A stretch of DNA of 64,000 bases from an uncultured Alphaproteobacteria bacterium (GCA_934203105.1 CAKPYQ010000001.1:37270-101269); one strand, 5' to 3'; shown: positions 3,505 to 47,188, counted from the stretch's first letter. Translations and numbers: made by a program. The notes: generated from the sequence alone by a model not told the origin.

Positions 3505-3561
3505 TTTTTCCTTTTATTTTTTACTGGCTATTTAATGCGAAAAAGGATATCATCTTTTCAT

Positions 3562-18829: not shown

Positions 18830-18858
18830 TTGCATTAACACTAAAAGGAGATTATAAT
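18830..18858 (+). promoter_or_regulatory. sigma-70-like promoter of the first Cys-rich pilin-like gene (TTGCAT-17-TATAAT)
   Basis: ttgcat at 18830-18835, a 17-nt spacer, tataat at 18853-18858. An RBS aggga lies before the ATG at 18896. Confidence 0.5.
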
Positions 18859-18895: not shown

Positions 18896-20899
18896 ATGAA
18901 ACCATTTTTTCAAATCGGTCGAAGTATGATCGAAATGCTGGCGGTATTGGCAATTATCGGCGTGCTGTCAATTGCGGGGATTTTGGGCTATAAATTGGCT
19001 TTAAACAGCTTCATCGCAAACGACATTCTAAACGACGTCCGTTTGGCTGCGGCGACTGTACTGCACCAAGACCAACGAAAAATTGAAAATCAAAAATTGA
19101 TTGATATATCCGAATTTCATCAAACTATTAAATTTGATATGGAAGCATTTCAAGACGATTGGGAAATATTTTCCATTCGTGTTTACGATGTGCCAAAGGG
19201 CGTTTGTCGATCCGTTTTGCGCAAAATCACCGATGAATATAAAATCCGTGTCGGAGAAGAAGGCCCGATTTACATCGATGACATTTCAATATGTGATCAA
19301 GAATTAAATGAAATGTTGTTTTATTTCGGAGATGCGGGCTATATTTGCTCGACCCCTTGCGAAGACGGTGAAATCGGTTGTTGCAACGGCTGCAAATGTG
19401 ACGACGGTGCCGATTGCGTATCCGACGAAGTTTCCGGCGAACAAATGTGTTGCCCGTCCGAACAAATGGCGTGCAACGGACGTTGTTACACCGCTTGCGG
19501 ACAAGGAATGCAGTTTGATCCGACCACTTGCACATGCGTTTGCGGCACCGACAGCAGTGGCCGCCCGCTGTTCCAAGATGCCGACGGCAAATGCACACGT
19601 TGTCCCGACATCGGTGGCGCGATGCAACTGCTTTTGAAGAACGGAACTTGTGAATGCGAAAAACCCGGTTATGTTTATATTGAATCGGCTGGTGAATGCC
19701 AAAAGATCAGCTGTGACCCGCAAGAAGGTGCCGGCGGATACAAATGTACCATTAACGGCATTTTATGTGGCGTCGGCTGTGACGAAAACGCCAAAAGTTG
19801 CAACGGCATTTGTTGGCCAAACGGTTGTCCGGACAAAACTACGTTTAACAGAATGCCCAATGCACACAGGGGTTTCGGGCAAGAATTCCATTGTCAAAAA
19901 AACAAAAATGACAGTTGCTATTACGACTATGATATAGGCGAATGGTCCGTCAACAAATATTTGGGCAAAGAAAGAACCGATTTTCGTTGTTGTCAAGCCG
20001 ACAGCAATTGCAACTGCCAAAGCGGGCTTTGCGATCAAAGCTATTGCGCTGCAAGATGGCCGGGAAAAGCAAACTATGAAGTCATTTATTATAATGAAGG
20101 TCGCGGCGGTTGCTATTTTGCCCAAGAGCACGTTTTCTGCTACCCGACCGAAAGTAATTTAAATGGAAATTGGCATTGCTTTATCACCAGCGGATTAAAA
20201 ACAGGCGAACAAAAAACATGTGATACAACTTGTTCGGCGGCCGATATGCCGTCATGCAATGCAAAATGCGATCCGGATGCGCTTTGCAATGTTTATAACA
20301 TGGGTATGCACGCAGACAGCAATGGTTATTGTTGCACCACGATCAACGGACGAAACATCTGCGCCAAAGGAACGTATTTTTACGTCAAGACATCGGATTT
20401 AAAATACAATCGTTGTGGCGTGGATTGTTCGGCCGACGGCACATGTGAATTGGGCGATTGTTCCGGACAATGCCCAAGCGGCGAATATACCGAACTGAAC
20501 AATGTTTACGGTTGTGCTCATGGCAGAATCGGTTGTTACTATAACGGCAATTATATGGCCGGCAGAGAAGGCTTTTCATATGATTGCACTGTTGATAAAA
20601 CAACGCCTTGCGGTTCCAAATGCGACATCGATGGCAATTTGTGTGAAATCGTAAAAGATTTGGCTTGCGCACCGGACTTTATCGGCGCTTGCACAGACGC
20701 AAACGGCAATACGGTCGATTGCAAAAAGTGCCAAGACACCAAGGGCAACGAAGTTGTTTGCAAACAATGTGTAGCAGATCAACCGGTTACAAAAGAATGT
20801 ATTTGTCCGGCTCATACCGAAACGGCCGAAGGACAGCTTTGCTGTTTAAAAACGCACCAATTGGTCAATGGCGGATGTAATTTGTTAAGCGGATCTTAA
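18896..20899 (+). CDS. giant cysteine-rich secreted protein with type IV prepilin-like (class III signal) N-terminus
   Basis: The N-terminus MKPFFQIG|RSMIEMLAVLAIIGVLSIAGILGY has a short basic leader, then Gly, then a hydrophobic helix with Glu at +5. These are the hallmarks of the prepilin-peptidase substrate. About 500 residues follow with more than 70 Cys in CxC/CC/CxxC arrangements. Confidence 0.6.
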   Translation: MKPFFQIGRSMIEMLAVLAIIGVLSIAGILGYKLALNSFIANDILNDVRLAAATVLHQDQRKIENQKLIDISEFHQTIKFDMEAFQDDWEIFSIRVYDVPKGVCRSVLRKITDEYKIRVGEEGPIYIDDISICDQELNEMLFYFGDAGYICSTPCEDGEIGCCNGCKCDDGADCVSDEVSGEQMCCPSEQMACNGRCYTACGQGMQFDPTTCTCVCGTDSSGRPLFQDADGKCTRCPDIGGAMQLLLKNGTCECEKPGYVYIESAGECQKISCDPQEGAGGYKCTINGILCGVGCDENAKSCNGICWPNGCPDKTTFNRMPNAHRGFGQEFHCQKNKNDSCYYDYDIGEWSVNKYLGKERTDFRCCQADSNCNCQSGLCDQSYCAARWPGKANYEVIYYNEGRGGCYFAQEHVFCYPTESNLNGNWHCFITSGLKTGEQKTCDTTCSAADMPSCNAKCDPDALCNVYNMGMHADSNGYCCTTINGRNICAKGTYFYVKTSDLKYNRCGVDCSADGTCELGDCSGQCPSGEYTELNNVYGCAHGRIGCYYNGNYMAGREGFSYDCTVDKTTPCGSKCDIDGNLCEIVKDLACAPDFIGACTDANGNTVDCKKCQDTKGNEVVCKQCVADQPVTKECICPAHTETAEGQLCCLKTHQLVNGGCNLLSGS

Positions 20900-20992
20900 T
20901 TTATTGTATTGAACCGTCTTTATATTTACCTTTTATTAACAAAAGCCACGCTATATTAAAGACAAGCGTAAATTATTAAAAGGAGATTCGAT

Positions 20993-22063
20993 ATGAAACG
21001 GACGCGCAATATTGCTTTTGTTTTGTCCACCGTGGCGGCAGTCAGCTTGATTGCGGCATGCCAAAGCGCAAAAGAAGAACAACCGCTGCAAAATGCGGCT
21101 TGTCCGGAAGGCTTTGTTGAAACGACTAATATCGGCATGGGTGATGAAATTATTTGCTGTCCGTACGGAACAACCGGCCAAGACGGTTATTGCGTTGATA
21201 CACCGATGGATTATCAACCTGCCCCGTCCGAATATCCGCAAACAGATACGATCGTTGATACGGGCTTTGCCCCGCAACCCGATCAATCCGAAACGCAAGC
21301 TCCATCAGAAGAACAAACAAAACCAACTGAACCGGCTGAATTTGATGCTCGAACAACGCCTGCAGAGCCGGCCGAATCAGCTTCTGCACCGGCACAAGTT
21401 ACGCAAGTTGCCGGCGAATTCGTTTATTTAACCGCCCCGAACGGCAAAGGAAGCGCTTATTGCCAAAAAAGAGCCAATTCTTTGGCGTGGAACGGCATTC
21501 AATACAAATGTTGCGGATACGGATTAACGTCAACCGTCGTTCCGTCTCGTGATGATTCGATTTGCTGTCCGGTCGGTTCTACTTCGGCACGTTGGGTTGG
21601 AACAGCCGGCTTTGATTATCAATGTTGTCCGGTCGGAACGGTTGAAACCCAAAATGAAGGTTCGGGCGATAAATACATTTGTTGCCAAAAAGGTATGGTC
21701 GGCAAAGACGGCGTATGTCGCACCAAAACCGAATTGCAAAAAGAAGGCAAAGTTTTAATGACCGCAATCGGCAATAAAGGCCAAGCCTATTGTCCGCAAA
21801 ACGCAAACTCTTTAGCGTGGAATGCGGTTGAATTTCAATGTTGCGGCAAAGGAATGAAAGCGGCGTTGATTCCATCACGCGGCGATTCGATTTGCTGTCC
21901 GGAAAGCTCCGACGAAGCACGTTGGGTCGGACAAAAGTGGAATGATTTCGAATGCTGTCCGGCCGGTACAGTCGAAACAAAGAATGAAGGCGAAGGCGGC
22001 AAATATATTTGCTGTCCAAAGGCAAGCAGAGCTTTGAACGGGGAATGTTTAAGCGTTCAATAA
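20993..22063 (+). CDS. cysteine-rich lipoprotein with internal about 107-aa duplication (CC-P-x-G / CCG motifs)
   Basis: Lipobox L-I-A-A-C. Two repeats contain YCQKRANSLAWN..CCGYG...SR.DSICCP..S..ARWVG....CCP.GTVET.NEG.G.KYICC. A Pro/Glu-rich linker is present. Confidence 0.55.
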   Translation: MKRTRNIAFVLSTVAAVSLIAACQSAKEEQPLQNAACPEGFVETTNIGMGDEIICCPYGTTGQDGYCVDTPMDYQPAPSEYPQTDTIVDTGFAPQPDQSETQAPSEEQTKPTEPAEFDARTTPAEPAESASAPAQVTQVAGEFVYLTAPNGKGSAYCQKRANSLAWNGIQYKCCGYGLTSTVVPSRDDSICCPVGSTSARWVGTAGFDYQCCPVGTVETQNEGSGDKYICCQKGMVGKDGVCRTKTELQKEGKVLMTAIGNKGQAYCPQNANSLAWNAVEFQCCGKGMKAALIPSRGDSICCPESSDEARWVGQKWNDFECCPAGTVETKNEGEGGKYICCPKASRALNGECLSVQ

Positions 22064-22644: not shown

Positions 22645-25600
22645 TTACACGTCCATCACGTTGTCTGTCCAAAGTTCGCATTGTGTCATAACTGTTTGAA
22701 CGGCATCATCAACACCTTCTGGGGGATATTTATGCTTTTTTAACAATTTTTTTATCATCATACGCATTTTGGCGCGCGCTGTTTCTTTTTTCTGCCAATC
22801 TATTGTTTTATTTTTGCGCAAAGTTTCGGTGAGTTCTTTTGTAATAGCAATTAATTCATCATTTTCATAAAAATCTTTAACTGCTTGTGGACGAGCCAAT
22901 GCATCATAAAAAGCTGCTTCTTCAGCATTAAGCCCTAAATCATCACCTTCCTTTTGTGCTGTGGCAATTTGTTTTGCCAAATTAAGCAGCTCCTCAATAA
23001 CTTGTTCATTAGTCAACATACCGTTCAAATAGCGGTTCATAGATTCTTGTATCATTTCACTGAACTTTTCCGAACGCACAACATTGGTATGGCGATAAAT
23101 AGAAATCTGCTCAGCTATTAATTTTTTCAACAATTCGACCGCCAAATTTTTTTCTTTCATCTTGGACACTTCATCCAAAAATTTCGGGTCAAACAGCGAA
23201 AATTCTTCTTTTATATCTGAAAACAGATTAATTACACCATCGCTTTTTATACTCTGCCCCAACAGCTCGTTGATACGCTTATTCATTTCCGGCAAAGATA
23301 TTTTCTTTTGCCCACCGCCTTCGGTAAAACGCAAAATCATAATACGAACAGCTTCCATAAATGCTGCCTCAATACGCAATATTTCTTCAACAATAGATGC
23401 GCAAAGAGACAAAGCCTGATGTAACATAAGGGCTTGCTTAATAAATGCGTCTTTTTCTTTATTTTTCTCTCTGGCAATAATAAAGTTTGCGGCACCGCTT
23501 ATCAATCTTGCTCGGACTAAATTTGAACCGGTAGCAAATTCGCTATAATCAAAACCGTGCAATAAATCGCGACAAACCTGCAATTTTTCTTTGAATTTAT
23601 TATATGCTGTGGTAGCAATATCCATATTACCATAGTTCTTTCTGTCGCGGAGAGTATAATCATTCATCGCCTTTTTCAAAGCACTGGCAATACCGATATA
23701 ATCAACCACCAAACCGCCTTCTTTATCTTCAAATACGCGATTAACACGAGCAATCGCCTGCATCAGGTTATAACCTTCCATCGGTTTATAAATATACATT
23801 GTCGCAAGCGATGGTACATCAAAACCGGTTAGCCACATATCAACAACAATCGCAATCTTCAAAGGATCATTATTATCTTTAAATTTACGTGCTAAATCTT
23901 CCTTATGAGATTTATTACCAATAATAGCTCGCCAATCTTCTGGATCATCATTACCGGATGTCATAACCACAGCAACTTTATCTTTCCACGCGGGGCGTAA
24001 CTCCAAAATTCGATGATAAATTTTCAATGCAATCGGACGAGAATAAGCTACAATCATAGCCTTACCGGTTAATAAATTTTCGCGGTAATTTTCGTAGTGA
24101 TCCAAAATATCGCAGACAAGCGAATTGATAGTATCATCGTCGCTTAATATTGTTTCCATTTGCCCGAGTTGTTTTTTACTTTTTTCAATGACCTCTGGAT
24201 CGGCATTTTGTGCCATTAAATCATATTCAGCATCAATCAGTTGTAAAATTTCCGGTTTTAAATGAAGTTTTATCACGCGGCTTTCATAATAAACCGGACG
24301 CGTTGCACCATCTTCTACTGCTTGTGTCATATCGTAAACATCGATATAATCGCCAAATACCTCTCGCGTGTTGCGGTCATCAAGAGAAAGCGGTGTCCCC
24401 GTAAAGCCAATATATGTCGCATTTGGCAGAGAATTACGAATAATTCGTGCCGTTCCGACTTTGATATTTCCTTTTTTATCTATCTTTTCAGACAAGCCAT
24501 ATTGACCGCGGTGCGCCTCATCAGCCATAACGATAATATTCCGTCGCTCTGACAGTGGCTCAACTGCTTCCTCAAACTTTTGCATCGTGGTAAAGAAAAT
24601 ACCATTGGCTTTGATACCATTCAAAAGCTGTTTCAAATGTTCTCGGCTTGTTGCTTGCACCGGTTCTTGGCGCAAAAAATCTTTGCATTTAGCAAATTGC
24701 GTATAAAGTTGGTCATCTAAATCGTTACGATCTGTAATAACTACTATTGTCGGGCTGTTTAATGCGCTTTGCAGTAAATGAGCATAAAATACCATAGAAA
24801 GAGATTTGCCACTACCTTGCGTGTGCCAAAAGACACCGCCTTTACCATCAGTTTGCGTGGCGCGTTTGGTCGATTCGATCGCTTTTTTTACCGCAAAGTA
24901 TTGATGATAACCAGCCAAAATTTTTGACCTCCCCTTATTTTCGGCAGAAAAGCAAATAAAATTTTTCAAAATATCCAGCAGGCGCGATTTTTCAAAAATC
25001 CCATTAAAAAATGTATCAAATTGCGCATATTTGGTGTTTTCGTAGGAACCATCAACCGTTTTCCATTCCATAAAACGAGTCTCATCAGAAGTAATCGTTC
25101 CGGCTTTAGATACCGCCAAATCACTCATGACACAGATTGCATTATATATAAACATAGACGGGATTTCGTGCTTATAGTTTTGAATTTGCCGATATGCTTC
25201 CGAAGCATCTGTTTCTTCTCGCGACGGAGATTTCAATTCCATCAGCACAAGTGGCAACCCGTTGATAAACAGCAACACATCCGGACGTTTTTCGCTGTTT
25301 TCAATGAAGGTCCATTGGTTGGCAACAATGAAGGAGTTATTATCCGGATTTTCATAATCAATCAGATAAACAATCGTATCGCGTGGCTCGCCTTTTTCAG
25401 TATAGCGGACGGTAATGCCATTTTGCAAATAATCCATAAAAATGGCATTTTTTTGCGTCAATTCGGCATTTTCAAAATTTTTGAGCTTAAAAAGAGCCTC
25501 GTTTATTGCCTCATCCGGCAAATCTGGATTGATTTGATGTAGAGAATTTGTCAGTATCGGTTCATACAATGGCGAAGTAAAATCCCGCGTTTCCACATCC

Positions 25601-25698
25601 GGCCCATAAACATGTGTATAGCCAATTTCTTCAAACAACTCAATAATCGACTTTTCATACGCTTCTTCATTTACTGGATTGATGAAAGTATTTGTCAT
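22645..25698 (-). CDS. hsdR: type I restriction enzyme R subunit (HsdR)
   Basis: 1017 aa. The SF2 helicase motif I is HTQGSGKSLSM and the DEAH motif II is VMADEAHRGQ. The N-terminal nuclease region and the size are typical of HsdR. The start overlaps the upstream gene by 4 bp. Confidence 0.88.
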   Translation of the reverse strand: MTNTFINPVNEEAYEKSIIELFEEIGYTHVYGPDVETRDFTSPLYEPILTNSLHQINPDLPDEAINEALFKLKNFENAELTQKNAIFMDYLQNGITVRYTEKGEPRDTIVYLIDYENPDNNSFIVANQWTFIENSEKRPDVLLFINGLPLVLMELKSPSREETDASEAYRQIQNYKHEIPSMFIYNAICVMSDLAVSKAGTITSDETRFMEWKTVDGSYENTKYAQFDTFFNGIFEKSRLLDILKNFICFSAENKGRSKILAGYHQYFAVKKAIESTKRATQTDGKGGVFWHTQGSGKSLSMVFYAHLLQSALNSPTIVVITDRNDLDDQLYTQFAKCKDFLRQEPVQATSREHLKQLLNGIKANGIFFTTMQKFEEAVEPLSERRNIIVMADEAHRGQYGLSEKIDKKGNIKVGTARIIRNSLPNATYIGFTGTPLSLDDRNTREVFGDYIDVYDMTQAVEDGATRPVYYESRVIKLHLKPEILQLIDAEYDLMAQNADPEVIEKSKKQLGQMETILSDDDTINSLVCDILDHYENYRENLLTGKAMIVAYSRPIALKIYHRILELRPAWKDKVAVVMTSGNDDPEDWRAIIGNKSHKEDLARKFKDNNDPLKIAIVVDMWLTGFDVPSLATMYIYKPMEGYNLMQAIARVNRVFEDKEGGLVVDYIGIASALKKAMNDYTLRDRKNYGNMDIATTAYNKFKEKLQVCRDLLHGFDYSEFATGSNLVRARLISGAANFIIAREKNKEKDAFIKQALMLHQALSLCASIVEEILRIEAAFMEAVRIMILRFTEGGGQKKISLPEMNKRINELLGQSIKSDGVINLFSDIKEEFSLFDPKFLDEVSKMKEKNLAVELLKKLIAEQISIYRHTNVVRSEKFSEMIQESMNRYLNGMLTNEQVIEELLNLAKQIATAQKEGDDLGLNAEEAAFYDALARPQAVKDFYENDELIAITKELTETLRKNKTIDWQKKETARAKMRMMIKKLLKKHKYPPEGVDDAVQTVMTQCELWTDNVMDV

Positions 25699-26546
25699 TT
25701 TTTCTCCTTTAATCCTTTAAGAAATTCAGCCATTTTGTTTTTCCGTTCTTTATTATCTTTAGCTAAAACACAGAATAAAAGTAATTGATAAATTTCGTCA
25801 TATAGGTTTTCCAATTCGTTATCACTCATCTTAGCAATAATTTCTTTTTTATCTGCACCCTCTTTGTTATTATGACGTATATGAGCATTGTTAATCATTC
25901 CGCGAACGGTGGTAAAATAGGAATTGAAATCTGGTATACCGTCATCCAGCAATGGTTCATATTCTGTCGCAATGGTTAGTAATAATTTTCTTTTTTCCTC
26001 TAATTGTCCTTTTAACGATGCATGATGATATTTCAAAATAGCCATTGCTGTATCTTTTGATGAAATCTCTGCCACTGCAAACGCGGCAGGATCTTTAGGA
26101 ATAAGTAAAATTTTCTCTTCATCTTCAATACAATATTCTTTGTAATTCAAACGCTCTAAAATTAGATTCAAATTTTGCAATAGCATAATATATTCTTTGG
26201 AGCTTTGAAAATTCATATTTTGTCCCAGTCCAACTTTATTTTGAGCAAGTCGTATTAGATTAATAAAATATTCCAAAGTTAAAATTAAATCATCTTGTTC
26301 GTTCGGAAGTTTACCAATTTTCAGTTTTTTCCGAATTTCTGCACAATTTAAACATCCATTTCTTTGTTTCCATCCATGCAGTAAAAATGTATCAACAATC
26401 CCCTCAATATTTAATTGTCCTTGATGAAAATTCATTGGGTTTACATATGTGAACATAGGCAATGCAAAAAGTTTGATAATCTTTTTCATTTCTGCATTTA
26501 TATCATATTCACTGGCTAAAATTTCAAAGATATTTTTACGAGTCAT
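25695..26546 (-). CDS. hypothetical protein embedded between hsdS and hsdR (possible HEPN-like R-x6-H motif; function unknown)
   Basis: 283 aa, AT-rich, no P-loop, so it is not a PrrC-type ATPase. Its only motif-like feature is RGMINNAH near the C-terminus. The gene overlaps both neighbours by 4 bp. Confidence 0.3.
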   Translation of the reverse strand: MTRKNIFEILASEYDINAEMKKIIKLFALPMFTYVNPMNFHQGQLNIEGIVDTFLLHGWKQRNGCLNCAEIRKKLKIGKLPNEQDDLILTLEYFINLIRLAQNKVGLGQNMNFQSSKEYIMLLQNLNLILERLNYKEYCIEDEEKILLIPKDPAAFAVAEISSKDTAMAILKYHHASLKGQLEEKRKLLLTIATEYEPLLDDGIPDFNSYFTTVRGMINNAHIRHNNKEGADKKEIIAKMSDNELENLYDEIYQLLLFCVLAKDNKERKNKMAEFLKGLKEKK

Positions 26547-27754
26547 GGAGTATCCTTTTGTTCTGAAATATCCACATTATCGACATTGATTTCACCAGAC
26601 ATGAGTTTGGGTAATAATGTGTCACGAATAGAGGCTAATTTAATATTTTCTAAGGCATTAGCTGCTATTTTATGCATTAGAGGAGATACAATATTTGTAA
26701 ACTTTTTAACTGTATCTGGCAATGGAATAAATATTGGTAATCCTAGTAATTCACTTTGATTTAGACCTGGTTGAGCAGCTTTACTACACGCTAGCGTGTG
26801 CAGATAATTTTTATTTGTTTCATAACTTAAACAAAAGTAAATAAAAAATTGTGATGATATGTTTGATTTTCCACGTATAATAAACACATGCTCATTAACC
26901 GCACAAACTTTATGAGGAAATCCATCTAATGCAAGAGATACTTTTCCTGTGTATGCACCATCTTTATATAATAAAACATCCTCCGATAAGACCTTTCCTC
27001 GTTTCATTTGCTTGTAAAATTCTTCACTAATAAATTTTTCTTTACTGTAATCATATACACCAAATTTTTCAATATTTTCAGCTCCGATACTAGGTATTCC
27101 TTGACTTAGAGCTCCTCCTTTTGGTCGGCTACCACTTTCTGCAATATTAACAATATCTGCTAAAATGCCATTATTTTCAGAGCCATAAATAGATTTAAAC
27201 AGAGCCTGAGCCTGTTGTTCTAAATTATTATTTATCCTATTATTCAGCTCGATTTTATCATCCAGCACCCCCAACACCCTTGCAATCTTCTTCTGAATAT
27301 CAAGCGGAGGAACTGTGAATTCTAAATTTTTAACTTGTGTACCAGATATTTCTGCAAAAGTTGATCCTGATCCCATTCCTACAATATATTCAATGTTATT
27401 TTTTAGTAAATAATAGAAAAATTCAGAACAATATCCTTTTTTTAACACAAGACTTTTAAATCCTTGATTAGTACAAACATCATTTTTTGCAATCGCTACA
27501 TATCCAATAGGAGCTCGACTTGTTAATAAAACACTACCTTTAGGTAACATATGAGCACTACTATTTTGAAGGCCTTCTTGAGCTATATTTCGTTCACCTT
27601 TAGAAATGTATCGACTATTATAACCTGATAAATCTTTAGGAGTTAGCCATGGGATATCTCCATTCCAAAAATCATAATTTTTAGTACTAGGAGTGCCTCC
27701 ACCTATGACTTCACAAACATCACTTAATTTAATCTTCTGCCAATTACTATTCAT
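26543..27754 (-). CDS. hsdS: type I restriction-modification specificity subunit (HsdS), two target-recognition domains
   Basis: 403 aa with a duplicated TRD architecture and conserved central and C-terminal coiled regions. It is very AT-rich, as is typical of hsdS. Confidence 0.7.
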   Translation of the reverse strand: MNSNWQKIKLSDVCEVIGGGTPSTKNYDFWNGDIPWLTPKDLSGYNSRYISKGERNIAQEGLQNSSAHMLPKGSVLLTSRAPIGYVAIAKNDVCTNQGFKSLVLKKGYCSEFFYYLLKNNIEYIVGMGSGSTFAEISGTQVKNLEFTVPPLDIQKKIARVLGVLDDKIELNNRINNNLEQQAQALFKSIYGSENNGILADIVNIAESGSRPKGGALSQGIPSIGAENIEKFGVYDYSKEKFISEEFYKQMKRGKVLSEDVLLYKDGAYTGKVSLALDGFPHKVCAVNEHVFIIRGKSNISSQFFIYFCLSYETNKNYLHTLACSKAAQPGLNQSELLGLPIFIPLPDTVKKFTNIVSPLMHKIAANALENIKLASIRDTLLPKLMSGEINVDNVDISEQKDTP

Positions 27755-28784
27755 CGGCTACCTCCAAATTTTCATCATCTATGCGAATTTCTTCTATTGA
27801 AAAAGAATAATCATCACAACTATTAATCCATAGTGTCATATCAAGTTCATCTGTAAAGGATAAAGCAGAATTCGTATCAACGGTTATTTCTGCTCGTATC
27901 ATAACCTCATATTCTAAAAATATTTCATCTTCATGGTGTTGTTCTATATTGTATATATTTTTTACAATAAATTTGCTTAAAGACAAATATTTTGTATCTC
28001 CGATAATTTCATTAGAAAATGATCTTAAATCATTAAGAATATTATCTGAATTTAGATATTCTTTTATCTCGGAGTATTCTTCAGGATATTGAGGTGGAAT
28101 AGGATATGTGTCATCTTTATCTTTTGCTATTTGATCTAATTTTGAGTTTAAAATGTCTTCATTTTTTGAATTAATAAAAATAATTTCTTGATTTGGAAAT
28201 AACTTTTTATACTCTTCTTTTAACTCTTCATTGAACATTTTATCATTTGTATATAGGATGATATTTGTATCCGGATGTTCTTTTTTGTATTCTAAAATTG
28301 TTTCCCAAAGTAATGCATCTTTAAAACCCTTATCTGAGTTATTTTCTTTTCCCTCAAAAGGTGGTCTTTTATCAAATGCTCTATTTATAAGATTAAAATA
28401 ACATTTATCAGATGGAAAATTTAATTCTACAATGTTAATAGGCTTATTTTTTAATGCATTTTTATAGGCATTAATGTTTTCATCAAGATAAGTATCATAA
28501 TTTTTTGTTGTATCAACTTTATACGAATGGAAAGGAAATTTATGTTTTTTAAGCATATCTTCAAATTCTTTAACTTTTTTATGGTATGCTATAATATTTT
28601 GTTTTTTAGTTTCAGACCATACAATTTGAGGAATAGCAATTGATACAATATCATAAATATCTAACTCTTCAATGCGTGTCATGAAATTGTCAAGAGTACC
28701 ATTAAAAGAAAAATCTGTAAAATCACAGCATCGAGTATAGTCCTTATATAAAGCATTTGTATCAAAAATAAGTAGATAGTCCAT
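27747..28784 (-). CDS. hypothetical protein embedded in the R-M operon; N-terminal region with PIN-like acidic-residue pattern (tentative)
   Basis: 345 aa. The N-terminus LLIFDTNAL resembles the first PIN strand with its conserved Asp. Later acidic or threonine positions (VWSETKK, ILYTNDKMF with T-x-D) are compatible with a PIN-like fold carrying insertions. There is no database support. Confidence 0.3.
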   Translation of the reverse strand: MDYLLIFDTNALYKDYTRCCDFTDFSFNGTLDNFMTRIEELDIYDIVSIAIPQIVWSETKKQNIIAYHKKVKEFEDMLKKHKFPFHSYKVDTTKNYDTYLDENINAYKNALKNKPINIVELNFPSDKCYFNLINRAFDKRPPFEGKENNSDKGFKDALLWETILEYKKEHPDTNIILYTNDKMFNEELKEEYKKLFPNQEIIFINSKNEDILNSKLDQIAKDKDDTYPIPPQYPEEYSEIKEYLNSDNILNDLRSFSNEIIGDTKYLSLSKFIVKNIYNIEQHHEDEIFLEYEVMIRAEITVDTNSALSFTDELDMTLWINSCDDYSFSIEEIRIDDENLEVADE

Positions 28785-28792
28785 TTTAACCT

Positions 28793-29203
28793 CTATTCAT
28801 AAATTACTCTTTTTGCAATCGATATAAGTTTCTGTAATAAATGCTTTAATTTTTCTCTATATTCATTATGTTCTCTACCAGTATAATACCCGCTTATTGC
28901 AGAATGAGGCAGTGGAATATAGTTTTGATTAAATGGACTTATATAATTCTTTGTCGGATTAAAATAATCACTTATCCAATTATTACGTGGCATACAATAT
29001 CCAAAATTTTCAGATAAATATGAAGTATAATTTTGTAAATACGCTTCATCCATAAGTTTAATTGTTGATGAGGCATATTTTTCAAATGCTTCATATAAAT
29101 CTTTATCTAAATGTTCATTGGCTAATAAATCTATTCCTTTACCTAGGGCTTCAAGCAATTCATTTAGAGCCTTTTGTTTATTAGGATCCAACATAATCAT
29201 CAC
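28793..29203 (-). CDS. hypothetical protein embedded in the R-M operon
   Basis: 136 aa with no recognised motif. It is translationally coupled (ATGA overlap) to the upstream small membrane protein gene. Confidence 0.3.
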   Translation of the reverse strand: MMIMLDPNKQKALNELLEALGKGIDLLANEHLDKDLYEAFEKYASSTIKLMDEAYLQNYTSYLSENFGYCMPRNNWISDYFNPTKNYISPFNQNYIPLPHSAISGYYTGREHNEYREKLKHLLQKLISIAKRVIYE

Positions 29204-29469
29204 TTTCCCTCCGTTGATTTCATTATAATTTCTTCTTCCTTATTATTTTTTTCTTCAGCTTTTTTTATAAGTAATTCATCAAATGTTGTTTTATTTTCCT
29301 TTTGTTCTTCTACAGTTTCAGGATTAAGCTCAGCCCCACCAGGGAGTTTAGTTAAACGAGAAAGAATTTTGCGAATATCATTTTTAAAAATAAAAATACA
29401 TCCACCAACTAAAATAGGCCACGCTAGATGTTCACATAATCCTAATATGAAAGTTTGCCAAGGATACAT
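29200..29469 (-). CDS. small single-TM membrane protein embedded in the R-M operon
   Basis: 89 aa. The hydrophobic helix WPILVGGCIFIF is followed by a charged KE-rich tail. The start is 2 bp after the hsdM stop. Confidence 0.35.
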   Translation of the reverse strand: MYPWQTFILGLCEHLAWPILVGGCIFIFKNDIRKILSRLTKLPGGAELNPETVEEQKENKTTFDELLIKKAEEKNNKEEEIIMKSTEGK

Positions 29470-29471
29470 TT

Positions 29472-30980
29472 TTACATCTCCCAGCCGATGGCTTTCAGTT
29501 TGTTTTTAATCTCTTCTTGCAAAGCATCAGACTGCCTAAACATCTCTGCAAGCTCTCCGGTCAGGCGTTTCATTTTATCTTCAAAAGGTTCACCGTCATC
29601 TTTCTGTTCCTCAATGCCAACATAGCGTCCAGGCGTCAAAATGTAATCCTGTGTCGCAATTTCTGCCGTTGTTGCTACCGCACAAAACCCTTTAACATTT
29701 TCCAACTTTCCTTTTTGAAATGCAGTAAATGTGTCTGCAATCTTTTTAATATCTGCATCCGTAAAATCGCGGTGTTTGCGGTCAACCATGTAGCCCATTT
29801 TCCGCGCATCAATAAAGACTGTTTTACCTTTTTGAGCTTTGTTTTTACTGATAAACCATAACGTTACCGGAATTGTTACACTATAAAACAGTTGTGGTGG
29901 TAGAGCGATAATACCCTCTATCAAATCGGCCTCAATAATATTTTTGCGAATTTCACCTTCACCGCTTGTTTGGGTAGAAAGCGCACCATTTGCAAGGACT
30001 AAACCGATTTTCCCATTAGGTGCTAAGTGATGTATCATATGTTGAATCCACGCATAGTTTGCGTTTCCTGCCGGTGGAATTCCATATTTCCAACGCACAT
30101 CATCTTGTAACTTATCCTGTCCCCAATTAGAAAGGTTAAACGGAGGATTAGCCATAATAAAATCAAACTTTTCATGCGGGTGCAGGTCATTAAAAAATGT
30201 ATCTGCCTGATATGGCCCGAAATCAGCATCAATGCCGCGAATAGCCATATTCATCTTGGCCATTTTCCATGTATCAGCATTGGATTCTTGTCCATAAACC
30301 GATATGTGGTCGCGGTTTCCGCCATGTGCTTGTAAAAATTTAACCGACTGAACAAACATACCACCGGAACCACAACAAGGATCATAAACGCGGCAATTAT
30401 CAAATGGTTTCAAAACCTCGACAATGGTTTTAACAATGCTTTGTGGCGTATAAAACTCACCGCCTTTGGTGCCTTCATATGCCGCAAATTGTGCAATACA
30501 GTATTCATAAGTTCTACCGAGTAAATCTCTATCTCCGTTGGTATCAGACATATCAATATTGTTTGTAAAAAGGTCAACAACATTGCCTAAAACACGTTTA
30601 TCAAGATCTTGATTGGCATAATTTTTAGGTAATACATTTTTAAGCGATTTATTTTCTGCTTCAATCGCTCGCATAGCATCATCAATAATAATGCCGATTT
30701 CCGGAGTGTGTGCCGCTTCAGCAATTTTACTCCAACGTGCGGCCTCAGGAACATAGAAAATACCTTCTTCAATATATGCATCTTTGTCGTTTTCAAAACC
30801 ATCACCTTCGGCGACAAGCTGATTATAGCGCTTTTCAAAGGCCGCAGAAATATAACGCAAAAAGATAAGTCCAATAATTACTTTTCGGTAATCTGCCGCA
30901 GGAATATGTCCCCAAAGTTCACAAGCTGCACCCCAGATTTGCTTTTCAAAACCTAAATTTGCATTATTTTTACCAGCCAT
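29472..30980 (-). CDS. hsdM: type I restriction-modification methyltransferase subunit (HsdM), N6-adenine
   Basis: The N-terminal HsdM domain (WGAACELWGHIPAADY) is present. The SAM motif is DPCCGSGGMF. The catalytic NPPF lies in IMANPPFNLSNW. Confidence 0.88.
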   Translation of the reverse strand: MAGKNNANLGFEKQIWGAACELWGHIPAADYRKVIIGLIFLRYISAAFEKRYNQLVAEGDGFENDKDAYIEEGIFYVPEAARWSKIAEAAHTPEIGIIIDDAMRAIEAENKSLKNVLPKNYANQDLDKRVLGNVVDLFTNNIDMSDTNGDRDLLGRTYEYCIAQFAAYEGTKGGEFYTPQSIVKTIVEVLKPFDNCRVYDPCCGSGGMFVQSVKFLQAHGGNRDHISVYGQESNADTWKMAKMNMAIRGIDADFGPYQADTFFNDLHPHEKFDFIMANPPFNLSNWGQDKLQDDVRWKYGIPPAGNANYAWIQHMIHHLAPNGKIGLVLANGALSTQTSGEGEIRKNIIEADLIEGIIALPPQLFYSVTIPVTLWFISKNKAQKGKTVFIDARKMGYMVDRKHRDFTDADIKKIADTFTAFQKGKLENVKGFCAVATTAEIATQDYILTPGRYVGIEEQKDDGEPFEDKMKRLTGELAEMFRQSDALQEEIKNKLKAIGWEM

Positions 30981-31233
30981 TTTATCTCTCTTCGCATTGA
31001 AACTATTAATAGATTGATATTCAAAAGTACTTTTTGTAGTATATTAATTTTCAATAAAAAAGTCAAAGAAAATGTAAAGACTTACGCTAAAATCTTTATA
31101 CTTTTGAGATAAATATCGTTAAACCACTGAGAGTCGACAAAATAAAAAATACAATTATTAATGAAGTTATGTTTAAAATGCAAATTTAGGATGCCTTTAA
31201 AATCAAAACTCATCCAATTTAACGTCTTGCCTT

Positions 31234-31701
31234 TTAGTCATTGTAACAATCCGTATTTTTCAGCACTTCTTTGGAATAAGAATTCTTATAAAGATTCATA
31301 TACATATCTGCAAAATCAAGGGTATAGTTTAATTGAAAAATTATAATAAATAATGCAACATGCAACGATGATATATATAGGAAATTATTATAGCTATAAT
31401 TAAAAGACAACACATTTAAAAAGAATAAAATAAGTAAAGAAAATAGAGACATCTTTAAGAATTTTTTATTATCACTAATAAAAATCTTAAACATATTACG
31501 CTTTTTCATATAGAGATTAATGTTTTGATTAGCATAGGCAGCCAAAAGAAATGACAGTGAAAAGGCAAAAATAATAGAAACACATGTAATTGCATCAGAA
31601 AGCAGGTTATCTTTTAAAGGAAATCCCAAACTTATTATTAACAAGAATAGCAATATCCATGTTCTTATTCTACATTTTAGCAAAAATTTCTTCGATTTCA
31701 T
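31234..31701 (-). CDS. small polytopic membrane protein (about 4 TM), unknown function, overlapping the upstream gene
   Basis: The start is placed at MKSKKF, preceded by the strong RBS aaaaggaagaaggatatt. There are four hydrophobic helices. The gene is very AT-rich and overlaps the upstream 251-aa gene by 32 bp in a different frame. Confidence 0.4.
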   Translation of the reverse strand: MKSKKFLLKCRIRTWILLFLLIISLGFPLKDNLLSDAITCVSIIFAFSLSFLLAAYANQNINLYMKKRNMFKIFISDNKKFLKMSLFSLLILFFLNVLSFNYSYNNFLYISSLHVALFIIIFQLNYTLDFADMYMNLYKNSYSKEVLKNTDCYND

Positions 31702-32425
31702 AATATCCTTCTTCCTTTTCAAATTCAAAAATTTCCTTTGCCACAACGCTTTGTTCATTAATAGAAATAAAACCATCAGAGCTTTCCCCTTTTATATTGA
31801 AACTTTTTATGTATGAAGGAGACATTAATTTCTCGTATAATTTTTTTATATACTTAACATTAAGCGCTCTTTTAAAATCCATTTTTACAACGGTTGTCTC
31901 GGGTTTTTCTTTTTCTTCTAAATCATCACCCCAATGAGGATTCAAAAATTCATTTATAAATAAGTTGTTTGTTGCGGTAATAGAAATTGTTTCTATTGAT
32001 TTCACCTGTTTGATAAAATCATCAATAGAAGTAGAAACGGCCAACAAATCACAAGAAAAATTCTTGTCCGTTTCATGCAATAAATTCAAAATTATATTTC
32101 TTTTATTATGATCTGAACTCAATACCTTATTTTGATAAATCACAAATATAAACTGATGCGTCATATGAACAATTTCATCTGACAAGACGCTGTCGTCATA
32201 AATCCTTTGATTCCTATTATAGCATCTATTGGGTTTTGATTTTCCATATGACACTAAAAAAACGATTTTATCTTGATCCATCATATGACGTATCGTATAT
32301 GTGGTTTCACGCAATGGGTAATCTATGATTTCTTTGTTTTGCAGTTTTTCTTTTAAAATTCGTGTTCCTGCTCCTAAAAGGTCAACACATTCCGGAATAT
32401 AACTAAACATACGCACAGAGCTCAT
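31670..32425 (-). CDS. hypothetical cytosolic protein (251 aa), AT-rich, unknown function
   Basis: No recognisable catalytic motif by eye. A glutamate-rich C-terminus (EFEFEKEEGYYEIEEIF) overlaps the downstream membrane-protein gene. Confidence 0.4.
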   Translation of the reverse strand: MSSVRMFSYIPECVDLLGAGTRILKEKLQNKEIIDYPLRETTYTIRHMMDQDKIVFLVSYGKSKPNRCYNRNQRIYDDSVLSDEIVHMTHQFIFVIYQNKVLSSDHNKRNIILNLLHETDKNFSCDLLAVSTSIDDFIKQVKSIETISITATNNLFINEFLNPHWGDDLEEKEKPETTVVKMDFKRALNVKYIKKLYEKLMSPSYIKSFNIKGESSDGFISINEQSVVAKEIFEFEKEEGYYEIEEIFAKM

Positions 32426-32587
32426 CGTTCTAATCCTTTCAATATTTTTGGTTTCTTATCTATCTCCACTAATGTTTGATATTTTAACAATTTATTCTAT
32501 CGTATCAACATTTGATAAAAAGGTCAAGTAAATATCGAAATTTGATAAAATTTTTATGTTTTTTTGAAAACACATCAATATCAATTG

Positions 32588-33487
32588 TTACAAACAAATA
32601 TTGATTAAAAGATTTTTCTTTTCCTGATAACTTTTTACTAAACTCAAAACAAAATCGTTAATGACTTCCGCCAAGGGTAATTTCCCTTTGTCAGTATAAA
32701 TAACCTGCGCAGTAAGACCGGCAAGCACTCTTTTTATTTCTGGTGTTAATTGCCCCATAAATGACCCCATTTTTAAAATATCCAAAACAGCCTGATCTGC
32801 AAAGGGGCGAAATGGTTCAATCAAATCATCAACAAGTGGCATTGTATTTGCCGATTGGCAATGCTTTAATCCCAAATAAGGTAATAACCCGTTAGCACAG
32901 ACGCTGCGCGCAACCATTGCCCGTAAAATTGTATAAGCATAATTTAAAAGCATATTTATATCTGCCGCATTGCGATTGCGAATAAAATCAGAACCAAATA
33001 ATTCATTAAAATAAAGATGCGCCGCCTGCCCTTCATTATTTTGCAGGTCATCGTTTTTAACCGTTTTTGACAACATTTGTAAACGCACTTTTATCGTCGA
33101 GTTCGGATGAACAAAAGCTAATAACTTAGCTTGATTGCTGATCTTCATTTGCACAATTTTCTTCCACAAATTTTTACGCAAGGACTCCGGCAAGGCCGTT
33201 TGCGCTTTAATTCTGGCCGACGTTAACCAATGCCCGACAATCGGTAAAGTTATTGCGGCAGGCATATATTTATCATTGCAAAAAATAAGGCATGCTTGAT
33301 TTTCACATAAAGCATTAACGATATTTTTTGAAATCAAAACATTATGTGCGGAAATAATTAAACATAAAATGCTATCCAACGGGATCTGATTAACTTGATT
33401 GGTCCGTACATCTGTAACAATTAAAAAACCTTTCGATAAAGAAAGTTTGAAATGATCAGACGATATTTCTATTACCCGTTTTAACAT
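32588..33487 (-). CDS. cas1: CRISPR-associated endonuclease Cas1, type II-family-like, apparently solo (no cas9/cas2/array in the window)
   Basis: 299 aa. Long collinear similarity to type II Cas1 as I recall it from Neisseria: NEGQAAHLYFNELFG..F.RNRN...INMLLNYAYTILRAMVAR......LLPYLGLKH......PLVDDLIEPFRPFADQ. The putative metal-binding E, H and D positions are present. GC content is lower than in the adjacent core genes. Confidence 0.8.
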   Translation of the reverse strand: MLKRVIEISSDHFKLSLSKGFLIVTDVRTNQVNQIPLDSILCLIISAHNVLISKNIVNALCENQACLIFCNDKYMPAAITLPIVGHWLTSARIKAQTALPESLRKNLWKKIVQMKISNQAKLLAFVHPNSTIKVRLQMLSKTVKNDDLQNNEGQAAHLYFNELFGSDFIRNRNAADINMLLNYAYTILRAMVARSVCANGLLPYLGLKHCQSANTMPLVDDLIEPFRPFADQAVLDILKMGSFMGQLTPEIKRVLAGLTAQVIYTDKGKLPLAEVINDFVLSLVKSYQEKKNLLINICL

Positions 33488-33490
33488 TAA

Positions 33491-44459: not shown

Positions 44460-44519
44460 ATTCTTGGTGTCATTCTGAGCGAAGCGAAGAATCTCTTAAT
44501 ATGTGGCCTTGGGCGCAAA

Positions 44520-44558
44520 GTGGGGGACGCGAAATTTTCGCGCCGCGCGTCCCCCCAC
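44520..44558. repeat. palindromic element Q2 (gtgggggacgcg ... cgcgtccccccac with nested cgcgaaattttcgcg palindrome)
   Basis: Read directly from the sequence. Confidence 0.8.
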
Positions 44559-44932: not shown

Positions 44933-47140
44933 ATGAATAAAAATCAGCTATTAAACATCAAAAAAATGATTTTTGAGTTGGGGCGTGGGGGCAGCAAAAA
45001 TCATTTTTTTGATCGGGTGAATAACGTGCGGGAAGTTGAGAGATTCTTCGCTATCGCTCAGAATGACGATTGCGAAAACGCCAGCAAGAGGGGACGCGCC
45101 GTGCGAAAATTTTCGCGTCCCCTCTTGGATTGTTTTATTCGCCGTTATTCGGGAAAAAGCGCCCAAACACAAACCGGCCGGTCAATGCTTGAAATGCTGG
45201 GTGTGCTGGCGATCATCGGCGTGCTGTCGGTCGGCGCAATCATGGGCTTTCGGTACGCCATCAACCGCCACAAAGCAAACGAAACGATTTACGACGTTAT
45301 GCTGCGCGCGACCAACGTCCCGATGGCTTGGGACAATTACGCCGAGCTGCACGACTTTAAATATCTGTTCCCCGAGCTTCGTCCAAACGATGTCAATCCG
45401 GTCGGCTTTGCGGTTGAAACTTGGGCCGAACCTGCGACCAGCAAATACGCTTACCGAGTCGAAGTCGCGGACGTTCCAAGCGCTGTGTGCCGGCAAATTA
45501 TTGCTTTAAATCCGCCGGATATCTCGCTGTACAAAGCAGGCTCCGCAATCGATCGAACGGGCATTCATGCGACACAAAACGATTGCGGATCGGACAAAAC
45601 GAACATGTACTTTTTGTTCGAAGAAGGTTGGTTTGATCCTACGCCTGGTCCTGATCCAACGCCGGGTCCGGGACCGGAGCCGGGACCAGAGCCTGGACCT
45701 GAACCGGAATGCGCGACGAACAATGATTGTGCAGCGGGCCAAGTTTGCAAAAACGGCATTTGCGAAGAGTGTACTTTGAACTGTACAGGCGCTTGCGAGC
45801 GATTGAATGCAACGACTTGTTCGTGCGAGGTTTTAGCGGGATGCACGCCGTGCGCTGATGCCTCTGATTGCCCCTCCGGCAACTATTGCGATGAAGGCGA
45901 ATGTCAGACTTGTGATAAAACTTGCGCCGGCGCGTGTGAAGAATTGGATACCGCGACGTGTTCGTGCGTTGCTAAATCAGATTGCACGCCTTGTTCCGAT
46001 AGCTCCGAATGTGGCGACGGGCAATACTGCAACGGAGACAAGTGCGATAACTGCGATCTGACTTGCGACGGGGCTTGTGAAGAATTGAACACCGCGACAT
46101 GTTCGTGCGTTGCCAAGTCAAACTGTACGCCGTGTTCCGATAGCTCCGAGTGTGATGACGGACAATACTGTAACGGCGGCAAGTGCGACGGTTGCGATCT
46201 GACTTGTTCGGGCGCTTGCGAAGAATTGAATACCGCGACGTGTTCATGTGTCGCCAAATCCAACTGTACGCCGTGCTCCGATAGCTCCGAATGTGGTGAA
46301 GGACAATACTGTAACGGAGGCAAATGCGATACTTGCGATCTGACTTGTTCGGGCGCTTGTGAAGAATTGGACGCTGCGACGTGTTCGTGCGTTGCTAAGT
46401 CAAACTGCACGCCGTGCACCAGCAACGCAGATTGCGAAACGGGCAGCTATTGCGACGGCGTCGTTTGCACGCCGTGCCCCAGCGCTCAAAGCGGGTATGT
46501 GTGTTGTTCGGTCAAGCCGATCGACGGCGACAATCCGTTCGATCATGTATGGGTCGGCGATCCTTTGGGCGAGGGTTACTGCTGCACCAGCAAAGACGAA
46601 AGCGAGGAGTGTTGCACAGCCTATAACGCGGACTACGTTTACAAAGACGGTAAGTGTCAAGAATTTAAGTGTGACGACGGTTATCAAGCGGTAACGAATT
46701 ATGCTTCCGACGGCACAAAATCCGGCAAAGCCTGTTGCGAGGTGAAGGAGGATGAAACCTCTACAAACTCATACGGATGGACAAGACAATCAACAGGATG
46801 GACAATAGCAGGAGCCATTAACGGTAGTTGTTGTTCAGGATGGAGTTTTATAGGAGAAACTGAAGGAACTGTTGATTCATATCACACTGCTACTACATAT
46901 AACAATTCTTATGATTTAAAAACAAATGGTGGAGTAATGTATTGCGCTAAGCCGTTTAATTATGAAAAGAAAGTCTGGTATCCTGGACAAACAGATCCCG
47001 TGCAAGGCCCTAAGCGCGAAGATTATTATCCGAGCGCTTCGAAATATTGCTGTAAGACCAATTCTAGTTACGATAGTAGTACTACAACTTGTACATGTTC
47101 CGATTCCGGTGATCCGAAAAATGGATCGAGATGTGATTAA
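44933..47140 (+). CDS. giant cysteine-rich secreted protein, paralog of the 18896 gene, with prepilin-like segment (QTG|RSMLEMLGVLAIIGVLS) and 4 tandem 47-aa Cys modules; true start ambiguous
   Basis: A strong RBS (aaaaaggagataaaaATG) precedes 44933, but that start gives an 84-aa leader that runs through a palindromic repeat. Alternatives are TTG at 45125 or degeneration of the 5' end. Downstream there is a Pro-rich linker (PTPGPDPTPGPGPEPGPEPGPEPE). The repeat unit is CTPCSDSSECGDGQYCNGGKCD.CDLTC.GACEELNTATCSCVAKSN, and the C-terminal region is Cys-rich. Confidence 0.55.
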   Translation: MNKNQLLNIKKMIFELGRGGSKNHFFDRVNNVREVERFFAIAQNDDCENASKRGRAVRKFSRPLLDCFIRRYSGKSAQTQTGRSMLEMLGVLAIIGVLSVGAIMGFRYAINRHKANETIYDVMLRATNVPMAWDNYAELHDFKYLFPELRPNDVNPVGFAVETWAEPATSKYAYRVEVADVPSAVCRQIIALNPPDISLYKAGSAIDRTGIHATQNDCGSDKTNMYFLFEEGWFDPTPGPDPTPGPGPEPGPEPGPEPECATNNDCAAGQVCKNGICEECTLNCTGACERLNATTCSCEVLAGCTPCADASDCPSGNYCDEGECQTCDKTCAGACEELDTATCSCVAKSDCTPCSDSSECGDGQYCNGDKCDNCDLTCDGACEELNTATCSCVAKSNCTPCSDSSECDDGQYCNGGKCDGCDLTCSGACEELNTATCSCVAKSNCTPCSDSSECGEGQYCNGGKCDTCDLTCSGACEELDAATCSCVAKSNCTPCTSNADCETGSYCDGVVCTPCPSAQSGYVCCSVKPIDGDNPFDHVWVGDPLGEGYCCTSKDESEECCTAYNADYVYKDGKCQEFKCDDGYQAVTNYASDGTKSGKACCEVKEDETSTNSYGWTRQSTGWTIAGAINGSCCSGWSFIGETEGTVDSYHTATTYNNSYDLKTNGGVMYCAKPFNYEKKVWYPGQTDPVQGPKREDYYPSASKYCCKTNSSYDSSTTTCTCSDSGDPKNGSRCD
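45087..45126. repeat. palindromic element Q3 (aagaggggacgcg ... cgcgtcccctctt, 13-bp perfect arms, same loop core gcgaaaattttcgc as Q2), located inside the 5' extension of the second pilin-like ORF
   Basis: Read directly from the sequence. It is in frame with the 44933 ORF and translates as KRGRAVRKFSRPL. Confidence 0.8.
45843..46440. repeat. about 4.3 tandem copies of a 141-bp coding repeat (47-aa Cys module), very high nucleotide identity between copies
   Basis: Protein-level repeats read from the translation. The nucleotide copies, for example ...acgtgttcgtgcgttgctaagtcaaactg..., recur at a 141-bp spacing. Confidence 0.75.
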
Positions 47141-47151
47141 ACAAAGCGAAG

Positions 47152-47188
47152 GCAGGCGCTGTTGACAGATGGCGCCTGCATCCTTTTT
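47152..47188 (+). terminator. rho-independent terminator after the second pilin-like gene
   Basis: gcaggcgc tgttgacagatg gcgcctgc is a perfect 8-bp GC stem, followed by atcctttttac. Confidence 0.6.

Follow-up and report, generated by a model that had tools for sequence, protein, structure and literature searches.

Candidate modular type IV pilins with cysteine-rich C-terminal regions in an uncultured gut alphaproteobacterium

Modular pilins combine a pilin module with a linker and an extra module that does not have the pilin fold and is predicted to bind ligands at the tip of the filament (PMC8179133). In Streptococcus sanguinis the extra module is of the vWA type in PilB and a lectin in PilC (Raynaud et al. 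2021, PMC8179133), and a survey counted more than 1,200 modular pilins in 264 architectures, besides many more whose modules lack database signatures (PMC8179133). Here we describe two genes encoding large cysteine-rich proteins, A and B, in a stretch of 64,000 nucleotides (nt) from an uncultured Alphaproteobacteria bacterium (GCA_934203105.1 CAKPYQ010000001.1:37270-101269, referred to below as the window), together with a third gene, C, directly downstream of A, which encodes a predicted cysteine-rich lipoprotein. As in the modular pilins, A and B have a class III signal, a small pilin module and then a bulky module that is not pilus-specific, and we lean towards the view that they are modular type IV pilin-like proteins, in which a pilin carrier module bears a grafted disulfide-rich module, likely acting as tip or minor subunits of a filament. 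In contrast to the modular pilins, the extra modules of the family are unannotated, with about 10% Cys and up to ~80 Cys residues, the pilin module belongs to an unannotated and so far unrecognised subfamily with Arg at position +1, and the family, known from genes alone, is massively expanded in one lineage of gut Alphaproteobacteria. These features, and the fact that no platform protein or secretin has been recognised so far, are what is new here.

Judged from the predicted structure, the closest relatives of the module would be the type IVb pilins and the large minor pilins CofB and TcpB. Compared with type IVb pilins (CofA/CofB of enterotoxigenic Escherichia coli, ETEC; TcpA/TcpB of Vibrio cholerae; PilS of Salmonella Typhi), however, the family has leaders mostly of 8-13 instead of 15-30 amino acids (aa), a module of ~140 instead of ~190 aa, Arg at +1 instead of Met, Leu or Val, and no tcp- or cof-like operon, and the sequence identity is just 15-16%. 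The 8-aa leader, the ~140-aa module and the Arg(+1) of A all lie outside the type IVb subclass, to which fold similarity alone points.

A second comparison is offered by the families recognised by TIGR02532 and PF07963 in Planctomycetes, Verrucomicrobia, Lentisphaerae and the Candidate Phyla Radiation (CPR), which have dozens of paralogues per genome, with a near-identical N-terminus and diverse C-termini, encoded outside pil operons. The A/B family shares with them the common N-terminal segment, the diversity of C-termini and the location outside pil operons, but it belongs to another phylum, has the consensus G/RSMIEML and not G/FTLIEL (the slash marks the predicted cleavage site), keeps a complete pilin globular domain and includes many disulfide-rich members. 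Substrates of the type II secretion system (T2SS) carry Sec or Tat signals, pass through a folded periplasmic intermediate and have no class III signal; the class III-type N-termini of A and B are therefore a misfit with the suggestion, made in an initial annotation of this DNA, that these proteins are T2SS-substrate-like.

The pilin module of A and B

The same annotation had read prepilin-type N-termini into A and B, and this is borne out by a complete pilin-fold module behind the signal, recognised by profile search, by AlphaFold2 (AF2) modelling and by Foldseek. All six frames of the window contain just two prepilin-like motifs, those of A (MKPFFQIG/RSMIEMLAVLAIIGVLS) and B (...AQTQTG/RSMLEMLGVLAIIGVLS, with Glu at +5). 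When a profile of the module was compared with the PDB, the 12 chains found at E<1 were all type IV pilins, and in the best-scoring longer alignments (FimA, TcpA, PAO1 and PAK pilins) Met(+3) fell on mature residue 3, which makes the Arg residue +1 and the Glu residue +5. The AF2 model of the A module (predicted local distance difference test, pLDDT, 85; predicted template modelling score, pTM, 0.77) has a helix (residues 2-50) packed on a four-stranded sheet, its top seven Foldseek matches are all type IVb pilins, and a Cys pair conserved at the module end (residues 104 and 133 of A) resembles the classical pilin disulfide. We conclude that the first ~145 residues of A and B are a genuine type IV pilin module.

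The leader, the G/RSM[IV]EML motif and a conserved ~140-aa domain are common to the homologues of A, which vary in their C-termini. Residue counts at the signal site, made over 109 distinct family 5' ends, gave Gly(-1) in 109/109 with all four Gly codons in use, Arg(+1) in 107/109 with six codons in use (Lys in the other two), Ser(+2) in 109/109 with both TCN and AGY codons, and Glu or Gln at position -3 in 104/109; in the alignment of the A module Glu(+5) is invariant and the segment M-L-x-V-L-A-I-I-G-V-L-S is conserved. Since G, R and S show little or no variation as residues although each is written with several synonymous codons, this segment must be translated and under selection at the protein level. 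A start at Met(+3), chosen by several gene callers and leaving GRS untranslated, was rejected on the same grounds.

A and B had been described as paralogues with a common N-terminal segment, each carrying a long cysteine-rich part behind it. The paralogy is confined to ~112 aa at the N-terminus, with 35% identity and E 4e-18; the Cys-rich regions are unrelated. A and B accordingly show a modular architecture, with the N-terminal module as their only shared part, followed in A by residues 147-199 and ~460 aa of hairpins and in B by a linker, repeats and a tail.

Gene boundaries and cysteine-rich regions

The features of the three genes discussed in this section are the following.

18830..18858, + strand: promoter-like TTGCAT-17 nt-TATAAT upstream of gene A, read from the sequence
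18896..20899, + strand: gene A, intact open reading frame (ORF) of 667 aa
18896..18919, + strand: gene A leader MKPFFQIG (8 aa), ending in the invariant Gly(-1)
18920..19339, + strand: gene A pilin module, aa 9-148, with R-S-M-I-E(+5), hydrophobic alpha1N, predicted four-stranded sheet and Cys104/Cys133
19340..20899, + strand: gene A Cys-rich C-terminal region, aa 149-667, 68 Cys
20993..22063, + strand: gene C, intact ORF of 356 aa
44469..44554, no strand assigned: intergenic repeat element, found with blastn-short of the window against itself; inverted copy at 45039-45122
44933..47140, + strand: gene B, longest ORF, intact, 735 aa
44933..45178, + strand: gene B 5' extension or leader, with start ATG 44933 or GTG 45101 and Gly(-1) at 45176-45178
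45179..45634, + strand: gene B pilin module, from RSMLEML... to about aa 234, matching the A module as given above
45635..45709, + strand: gene B Pro-rich linker DPTPGPDPTPGPGPEPGPEPGPEPE, read from the translation; short tandem repeats at 45634-45707
45710..46414, + strand: gene B repeat region, five units of 47 aa, each with 10 Cys, and a degenerate sixth
46415..47140, + strand: gene B C-terminal CC-motif region, aa 495-735
47152..47179, + strand: terminator-like hairpin after gene B, 12 pairs (7 G-C), with a T-rich tail

Both the coordinates and the cysteine richness first noted for the three ORFs proved correct. Cys makes up 10.5% of the residues of A (70 Cys) and of B (77 Cys, 75 of them C-terminal to the pilin motif) and 7.0% of those of C (25 Cys), that is, 7-11% against a median of 1.2% for 57 ORFs of the window, the richest of which, apart from these three, reaches 3.5%; such an enrichment is far beyond chance.

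Upstream of A there is an RBS-like AGGGA (RBS, ribosome-binding site), preceded by the promoter-like site listed above. This site had been called a clean sigma-70 promoter, a description that suits its perfect -10 box but not its -35 box, which has 3/6 matches, and a consensus scan that needed at least 4/6 matches per hexamer did not report it; the scan reported no promoter upstream of B either. The start codon of B is uncertain. ATG 44933 has a strong RBS (AAGGAG) and would give a leader of 81 aa that reads through two intergenic-type repeat elements, while GTG 45101 has an RBS-like AGAGGGGA and would give a leader of 26 aa; a search for B with six alternative starts in the protein collection found none of them present. 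The repeat element at 44469-44554 consists of the box 'gtcattctgagcgaagcgaagaatc' and a GC hairpin, with a partial direct copy at 44583-44608, and its inverted copy at 45039-45122 lies in frame inside the B 5' extension together with a hairpin at 44957-45013. In relatives, called N-terminal extensions of 80-150 aa likewise cross similar elements, for example '...IGGAPTRALSPRRYQFGRSMIEML'.

The full-length AF2 model of A (pLDDT 68) comprises the pilin module, a poorly predicted, knot-like segment of low confidence (aa 147-199) and ~460 residues of beta-hairpin units, which at aa 260-660 form small modules with pLDDT 70-88. Foldseek found no PDB match to this model at E<1e-3 (best E 0.029, probability 0.08), phmmer of A against the PDB returned nothing, and Pfam gave no match at E<=1 for A or B, including none to an EGF, granulin or TNFR domain. 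The 47-aa repeats of B, which are underlain by a 141-bp tandem repeat at 45929-46417 (84% matches), pass the TIGR04201 model Myxo_Cys_RPT in four stretches (29.1 bits against a cut-off of 25); A has no match to this model. They share with TIGR04201 proteins the pattern C-x-x-x-x-[DE]-C-x-x-G-x-x-C-x-x-G-x-C, but the B unit has 47 aa and 10 Cys, so that the 22-residue model covers only part of it, and is grafted on an alphaproteobacterial pilin module. The EGF-, granulin- or TNFR-like assignment proposed initially for the Cys modules is therefore unsupported, given that no Pfam or PDB fold was matched for A and that the B repeats match a bacterial model. The CC-motif region of B is 35% identical over 150 aa to one relative, in locus L055.

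The family, its assembly machinery and alternative readings

A profile search of 1.84 billion cluster representatives (clusters at 50% identity) placed 6,169 clusters in the family at E<=1e-3 and 4,926 at E<=1e-10, and a scan of one genome per GTDB species found at least 557 loci, nearly all in metagenome-assembled genomes (MAGs) of uncultured Alphaproteobacteria. These MAGs come from human, rabbit and ruminant guts, and the host-associated lifestyle suggested for the source organism agrees with its being a host-gut alphaproteobacterium. None of the family proteins looked up had a name in its source, and a literature search for the motif found no paper with it; a paper on reduced-genome Rs-D84 gut Alphaproteobacteria does not mention pili for them.

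We surveyed the architecture of 108 family members from 80 loci, 96 of them complete. The mature lengths of the complete members are continuous from 113 to 886 aa (median 358), and the pilin-sized ones (113-160 aa, 2-4 Cys) are often found in tandem clusters (L051, L058, L069 and L024). Leaders of 8-13 aa with Lys or Arg are usual. A and B had been regarded as unusually large pilin-like proteins; the pilin module is real, and its combination with a large extra part is not unprecedented, considering that modular pilins are known (PMC8179133) and that the family extends without a break down to 113 aa. At least ten copies are present in the MAG SIG53 and at least nine in another MAG, where four small members accompany larger ones of 240-422 aa. 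Other C-terminal modules occur in relatives, such as DUF7107 repeats, and the relative P0020 has a sub-threshold Teneurin-EGF Pfam match.

Paralogues within a genome are 75-100% identical in nucleotide sequence over the first ~120 nt and then unrelated (L005, L015, L024, L051 and L058), and in some pairs the near-identity extends over 60 nt upstream. Strong selection could account for such a shared 5' segment, and so could duplication or gene conversion anchored at the 5' end. Beside the clusters of small pilin genes in related MAGs there are genes for eukaryote-like proteins (L058:171-830, L058:4755-7184 and L024:5761-8823), among them a protein with a serum-amyloid-A domain (PF00277, E 5.9e-17) and several large ankyrin-repeat proteins; a phage terminase gene lies between the pilin genes of L058.

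An A24 peptidase that could process these proteins is encoded in related MAGs. It has 226-236 aa with a Peptidase_A24 domain (PF01478, E 1.6e-14) and a conserved gene context (rpoD-dnaG-yqeY / A24-rodZ-prfA-prmC), and its 165 homologue clusters include one named by NCBI 'prepilin peptidase [Alphaproteobacteria bacterium]'; an attempt to link a contig carrying it to the samples of the window had no success. The lineage members match PF01478 only, and the N-terminal DiS_P_DiS domain was not seen in them, which makes the N-methylation of residue +1, expected by the initial annotation, doubtful. When all ORFs in 1.3 Mb of related loci were searched by phmmer with the E. coli proteins HofB, HofC, PpdD, GspC-G, GspL, GspM and GspO, the only matches were A24 peptidases and one T2SSE-family ATPase (L053:16425-18308; PF00437, E 2.7e-28). 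Its nearest families are PilT and ComGA, whose cut-offs it does not reach, and its gene lies ~5 kb from a family member. This ATPase gene, also seen at L095:9380-10918, is always a singleton adjoining rimP-nusA-infB; the protein has the Walker A sequence GPTGMGKTT and an N-terminal extension in which Pro-rich repeats of ~40 aa add up to ~330 aa. Just three close relatives came up when metagenomes were scanned with the L053 protein, and a regular-expression search for a Walker A motif returned no assembly ATPase.

Genes for membrane-anchored DsbA-like oxidoreductases were found at L067:4535-5422, L039:2240-3088 and L086:3005-3934, the first two within ~1 kb of a family pilin gene and the third not. 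Of the machinery whose presence had been proposed as a check (prepilin peptidase, T2SS or type IV pilus components and dsb genes), the lineage has the A24 peptidase and DsbA-like proteins, one related species has the divergent T2SSE-family ATPase, and no platform protein or secretin was found in the loci searched. The window itself has a ComEC-like gene (3493-5580, + strand; PF03772) with DUF4131 and Competence domains and no metallo-beta-lactamase match, which hints at DNA uptake.

On the reading that we favour, A and B would be synthesised with a cytoplasmic leader, which the A24 prepilin peptidase of the lineage would cut off after the invariant Gly, so that the mature protein would start with R-S-M-[IL]-E(+5), followed by the hydrophobic alpha1N helix. 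This helix would serve first as an inner-membrane anchor and later as the polymerisation interface, and the pilin module of ~140 residues, closed by its conserved disulfide, would carry a big, family-variable, disulfide-rich module outside the cytoplasm: in A beta-hairpin modules in an array, in B five 10-Cys repeats that stand on a Pro-rich stalk and are followed by a CC-rich tail. Most likely, A and B would then be rare components of a type IV filament or sit at its tip, the shaft being built from pilin-sized family members, and their oxidation-hardened binding modules would face host or partner surfaces in the gut; an adhesive function is plausible.

Several observations weigh against this reading. 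Both proteins score below the cut-offs of TIGR02532 (A 13.4 and B 12.1 against 16.3 bits) and PF07963 (A 11.3 and B 11.5 against 21.2), although the relatives P0002, P0020 and P0028 pass TIGR02532 with 16.5-19.8 bits, and residue +1 is Arg and not the hydrophobic residue of known pilins. The leader of B is either 81 aa long with repeat elements in it or initiated at a GTG, and a clean nearby ATG with an RBS was seen in 7/19 giants (at least 600 aa), as opposed to 22/24 small members, which have it 8-13 codons upstream. No pilin-sized member was shown for the source organism, and neither the window nor the 10 kb on each side of it encodes a prepilin peptidase, an assembly ATPase, a platform protein or a secretin. 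In the 1.3 Mb of related loci no GspF/PilC/HofC platform protein, no secretin (GspD) and no GspL or GspM was found, an absence that is weak evidence because this sample is small and biased to the flanks of family genes, and the L053 ATPase is divergent, comes from one species and falls under every NCBIfam equivalog cut-off.

The alternative that survives best, which we consider possible if rather doubtful, is that the pilin-type signal serves as a membrane anchor or export tag only, the Cys-rich domain being periplasmic or reaching the surface by another route, with no polymerisation. Such a use is suspected where N-methyl-motif families have expanded in Planctomycetes, Verrucomicrobia and Lentisphaerae. 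It would account for the missing platform, secretin and alignment-complex genes in the related loci and around the window, for a huge family scattered in housekeeping contexts instead of pil operons, for the unusual Arg(+1) and for a peptidase without a recognisable methyltransferase-associated domain. However, conservation goes beyond a transmembrane helix and covers the whole pilin fold, with its sheet and closing disulfide; Glu(+5) and Gly(-1), residues that matter for pilin processing and filament assembly rather than for anchoring, are invariant; the family includes ordinary-size pilins in tandem clusters; and the A24 peptidase is conserved, with a PilT/ComGA-like ATPase in at least one related species, whereas the absence of further machinery counts for little in a sample of flanking sequence of this size.

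It is very improbable that a Sec signal-anchor resembles a pilin signal by chance and that EGF- or granulin-like Cys modules were acquired from a eukaryotic host. The very high Cys content, the weakest Foldseek leads (EGF-containing LDLR and teneurin chains), the sub-threshold Teneurin-EGF match of P0020 and a GC content of A, B and C slightly above the window mean speak for it, but the N-terminal similarity spans ~140 residues with a pilin fold, A and B have none of the EGF, granulin or TNFR Pfam domains, all Foldseek leads for full-length A have E of at least 0.029 and probability of at most 0.11, and the B repeat matches the bacterial TIGR04201. A transfer of A, B and C from eukaryotes is likewise disfavoured by their GC content at third codon positions (GC3), which is within one standard deviation of the remaining window genes.

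That the genes are pseudogenes or unexpressed cassettes we hold to be scarcely credible: repeat elements have invaded the B 5' region, many giants lack a clean start, no consensus promoter was reported before A or B, and the paralogues look cassette-like in their near-identical 5' segment followed by unrelated sequence, but neither ORF is interrupted over its 667 or 735 codons, every one of 13 strain variants of A has the full 667 aa, with 22 variable positions among them and a Cys altered in one only, many Cys columns of A are invariant among homologues at 24-35% identity, and strong RBSs precede A, C and the ATG start of B, with a terminator-like hairpin after B. Judging from these sequence features, A and B look functional.

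A broader proposal, extending the modular-pilin reading of A and B, is that the G/RSMIEML proteins supply the subunits for a lineage-specific branch of type IV filaments, so far undescribed, in uncultured gut Alphaproteobacteria, with a probably unmethylated Arg(+1) at the mature N-terminus, a minimal or non-canonical machinery and, in each small genome, at least ten interchangeable binding modules that are pilin-anchored and hardened by disulfides; we put it forward as a long shot. If true, the machinery would consist of an A24 peptidase encoded on its own among housekeeping genes and a single PilT/ComGA-like ATPase with its Pro-rich extension, no platform protein or secretin being recognisable, and the near-identical 5' segments could let recombination shuffle the paralogues as a variable surface-adhesin system that attaches the cells to host or partner cells.

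The bacteria concerned are common and uncultured in human and animal gut microbiomes, with an almost unknown cell biology, and a family of at least 6,000 clusters, with at least ten copies in one genome, provides a concrete hypothesis for how they may attach to host or partner surfaces. It would extend the modular pilin idea to extremely disulfide-rich cargo and to a lineage in which canonical assembly genes have not yet been seen, and an Arg(+1) pilin N-terminus would test the tolerance of prepilin peptidases and filament cores. A profile hidden Markov model (HMM) of the N-terminal module could annotate thousands of hypothetical proteins.

Lipoprotein C and other genes of the window

The Cys-rich lipoprotein with two CC-motif repeats that had been noticed downstream of A was confirmed. 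At its N-terminus a basic n-region and a hydrophobic core lead up to a predicted lipobox, LIAA-C23, judged here by the pattern [LVI][ASTVI][GAS]C, and the protein begins MKRTRNIAFVLSTVAAVSLIAA/C23; the repeats are placed as follows.

21422..22048, + strand: the pair of CC-motif repeats of C, ~100 aa each, at aa 144-242 and aa 253-352 (self-alignment score 332, ~50% identity)

There is also a partial third unit at aa 37-67. The RBS of C is strong (AAAGGAGA), no terminator-like site was found in the gap between A and C, and C may be co-transcribed with A. Its 28 homologues, at 42-61% identity, are all unnamed or hypothetical and occur in one-repeat and two-repeat forms, with the lipobox Cys kept as LTAC and LSAC, and an Lgt gene (PF01790) is present on the related contig L086.

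In L088-L090 a C-like gene adjoins an A-like gene (P0014) in convergent orientation, and in L086 a C-like gene adjoins VirB4 instead, so that the genomic linkage of C with A is suggestive. Directly upstream of the C homologue in L086 are genes for VirB4 and a VirB3-like small membrane protein of type IV secretion (L086:7084-9820), and the contig also holds the flagellar genes FliF, FliG, FliN and MotA. Homology of C with the Cys-rich parts of A and B was rejected: BLASTP gave short marginal matches only (E 0.057), and with an HMM of the 31-aa unit of C, CP.G..E..N.G.G...CC.......[DN]G.C, 176 family proteins scored no better than their shuffled versions. From its sequence, C would represent a separate family of Cys-rich outer-leaflet lipoproteins, unrelated to A and B.

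Downstream of C, a type I restriction-modification locus (22645-30980, - strand) encodes HsdR, HsdS and HsdM, with embedded genes for a 283-aa ORF without a Pfam match (25695-26546) and a PIN_12 protein (27747-28784). Between this locus and a TolC/ABC-2 efflux cluster there is a stand-alone Cas1 gene (32588-33487, - strand; PF01867, E 2.7e-27), near which no CRISPR-like array was found in 30500-34000 and a 251-aa ORF (31670-32425) has no Pfam match. Towards the end of the window, a 763-aa protein (61308-63599, - strand) contains a long (PEQPT)n repeat and has no Pfam match either. Past the window end (L085:1-9921) there are eight called genes for proteins of 215-756 aa, seven of them without a Pfam match and one with an HTH domain only.

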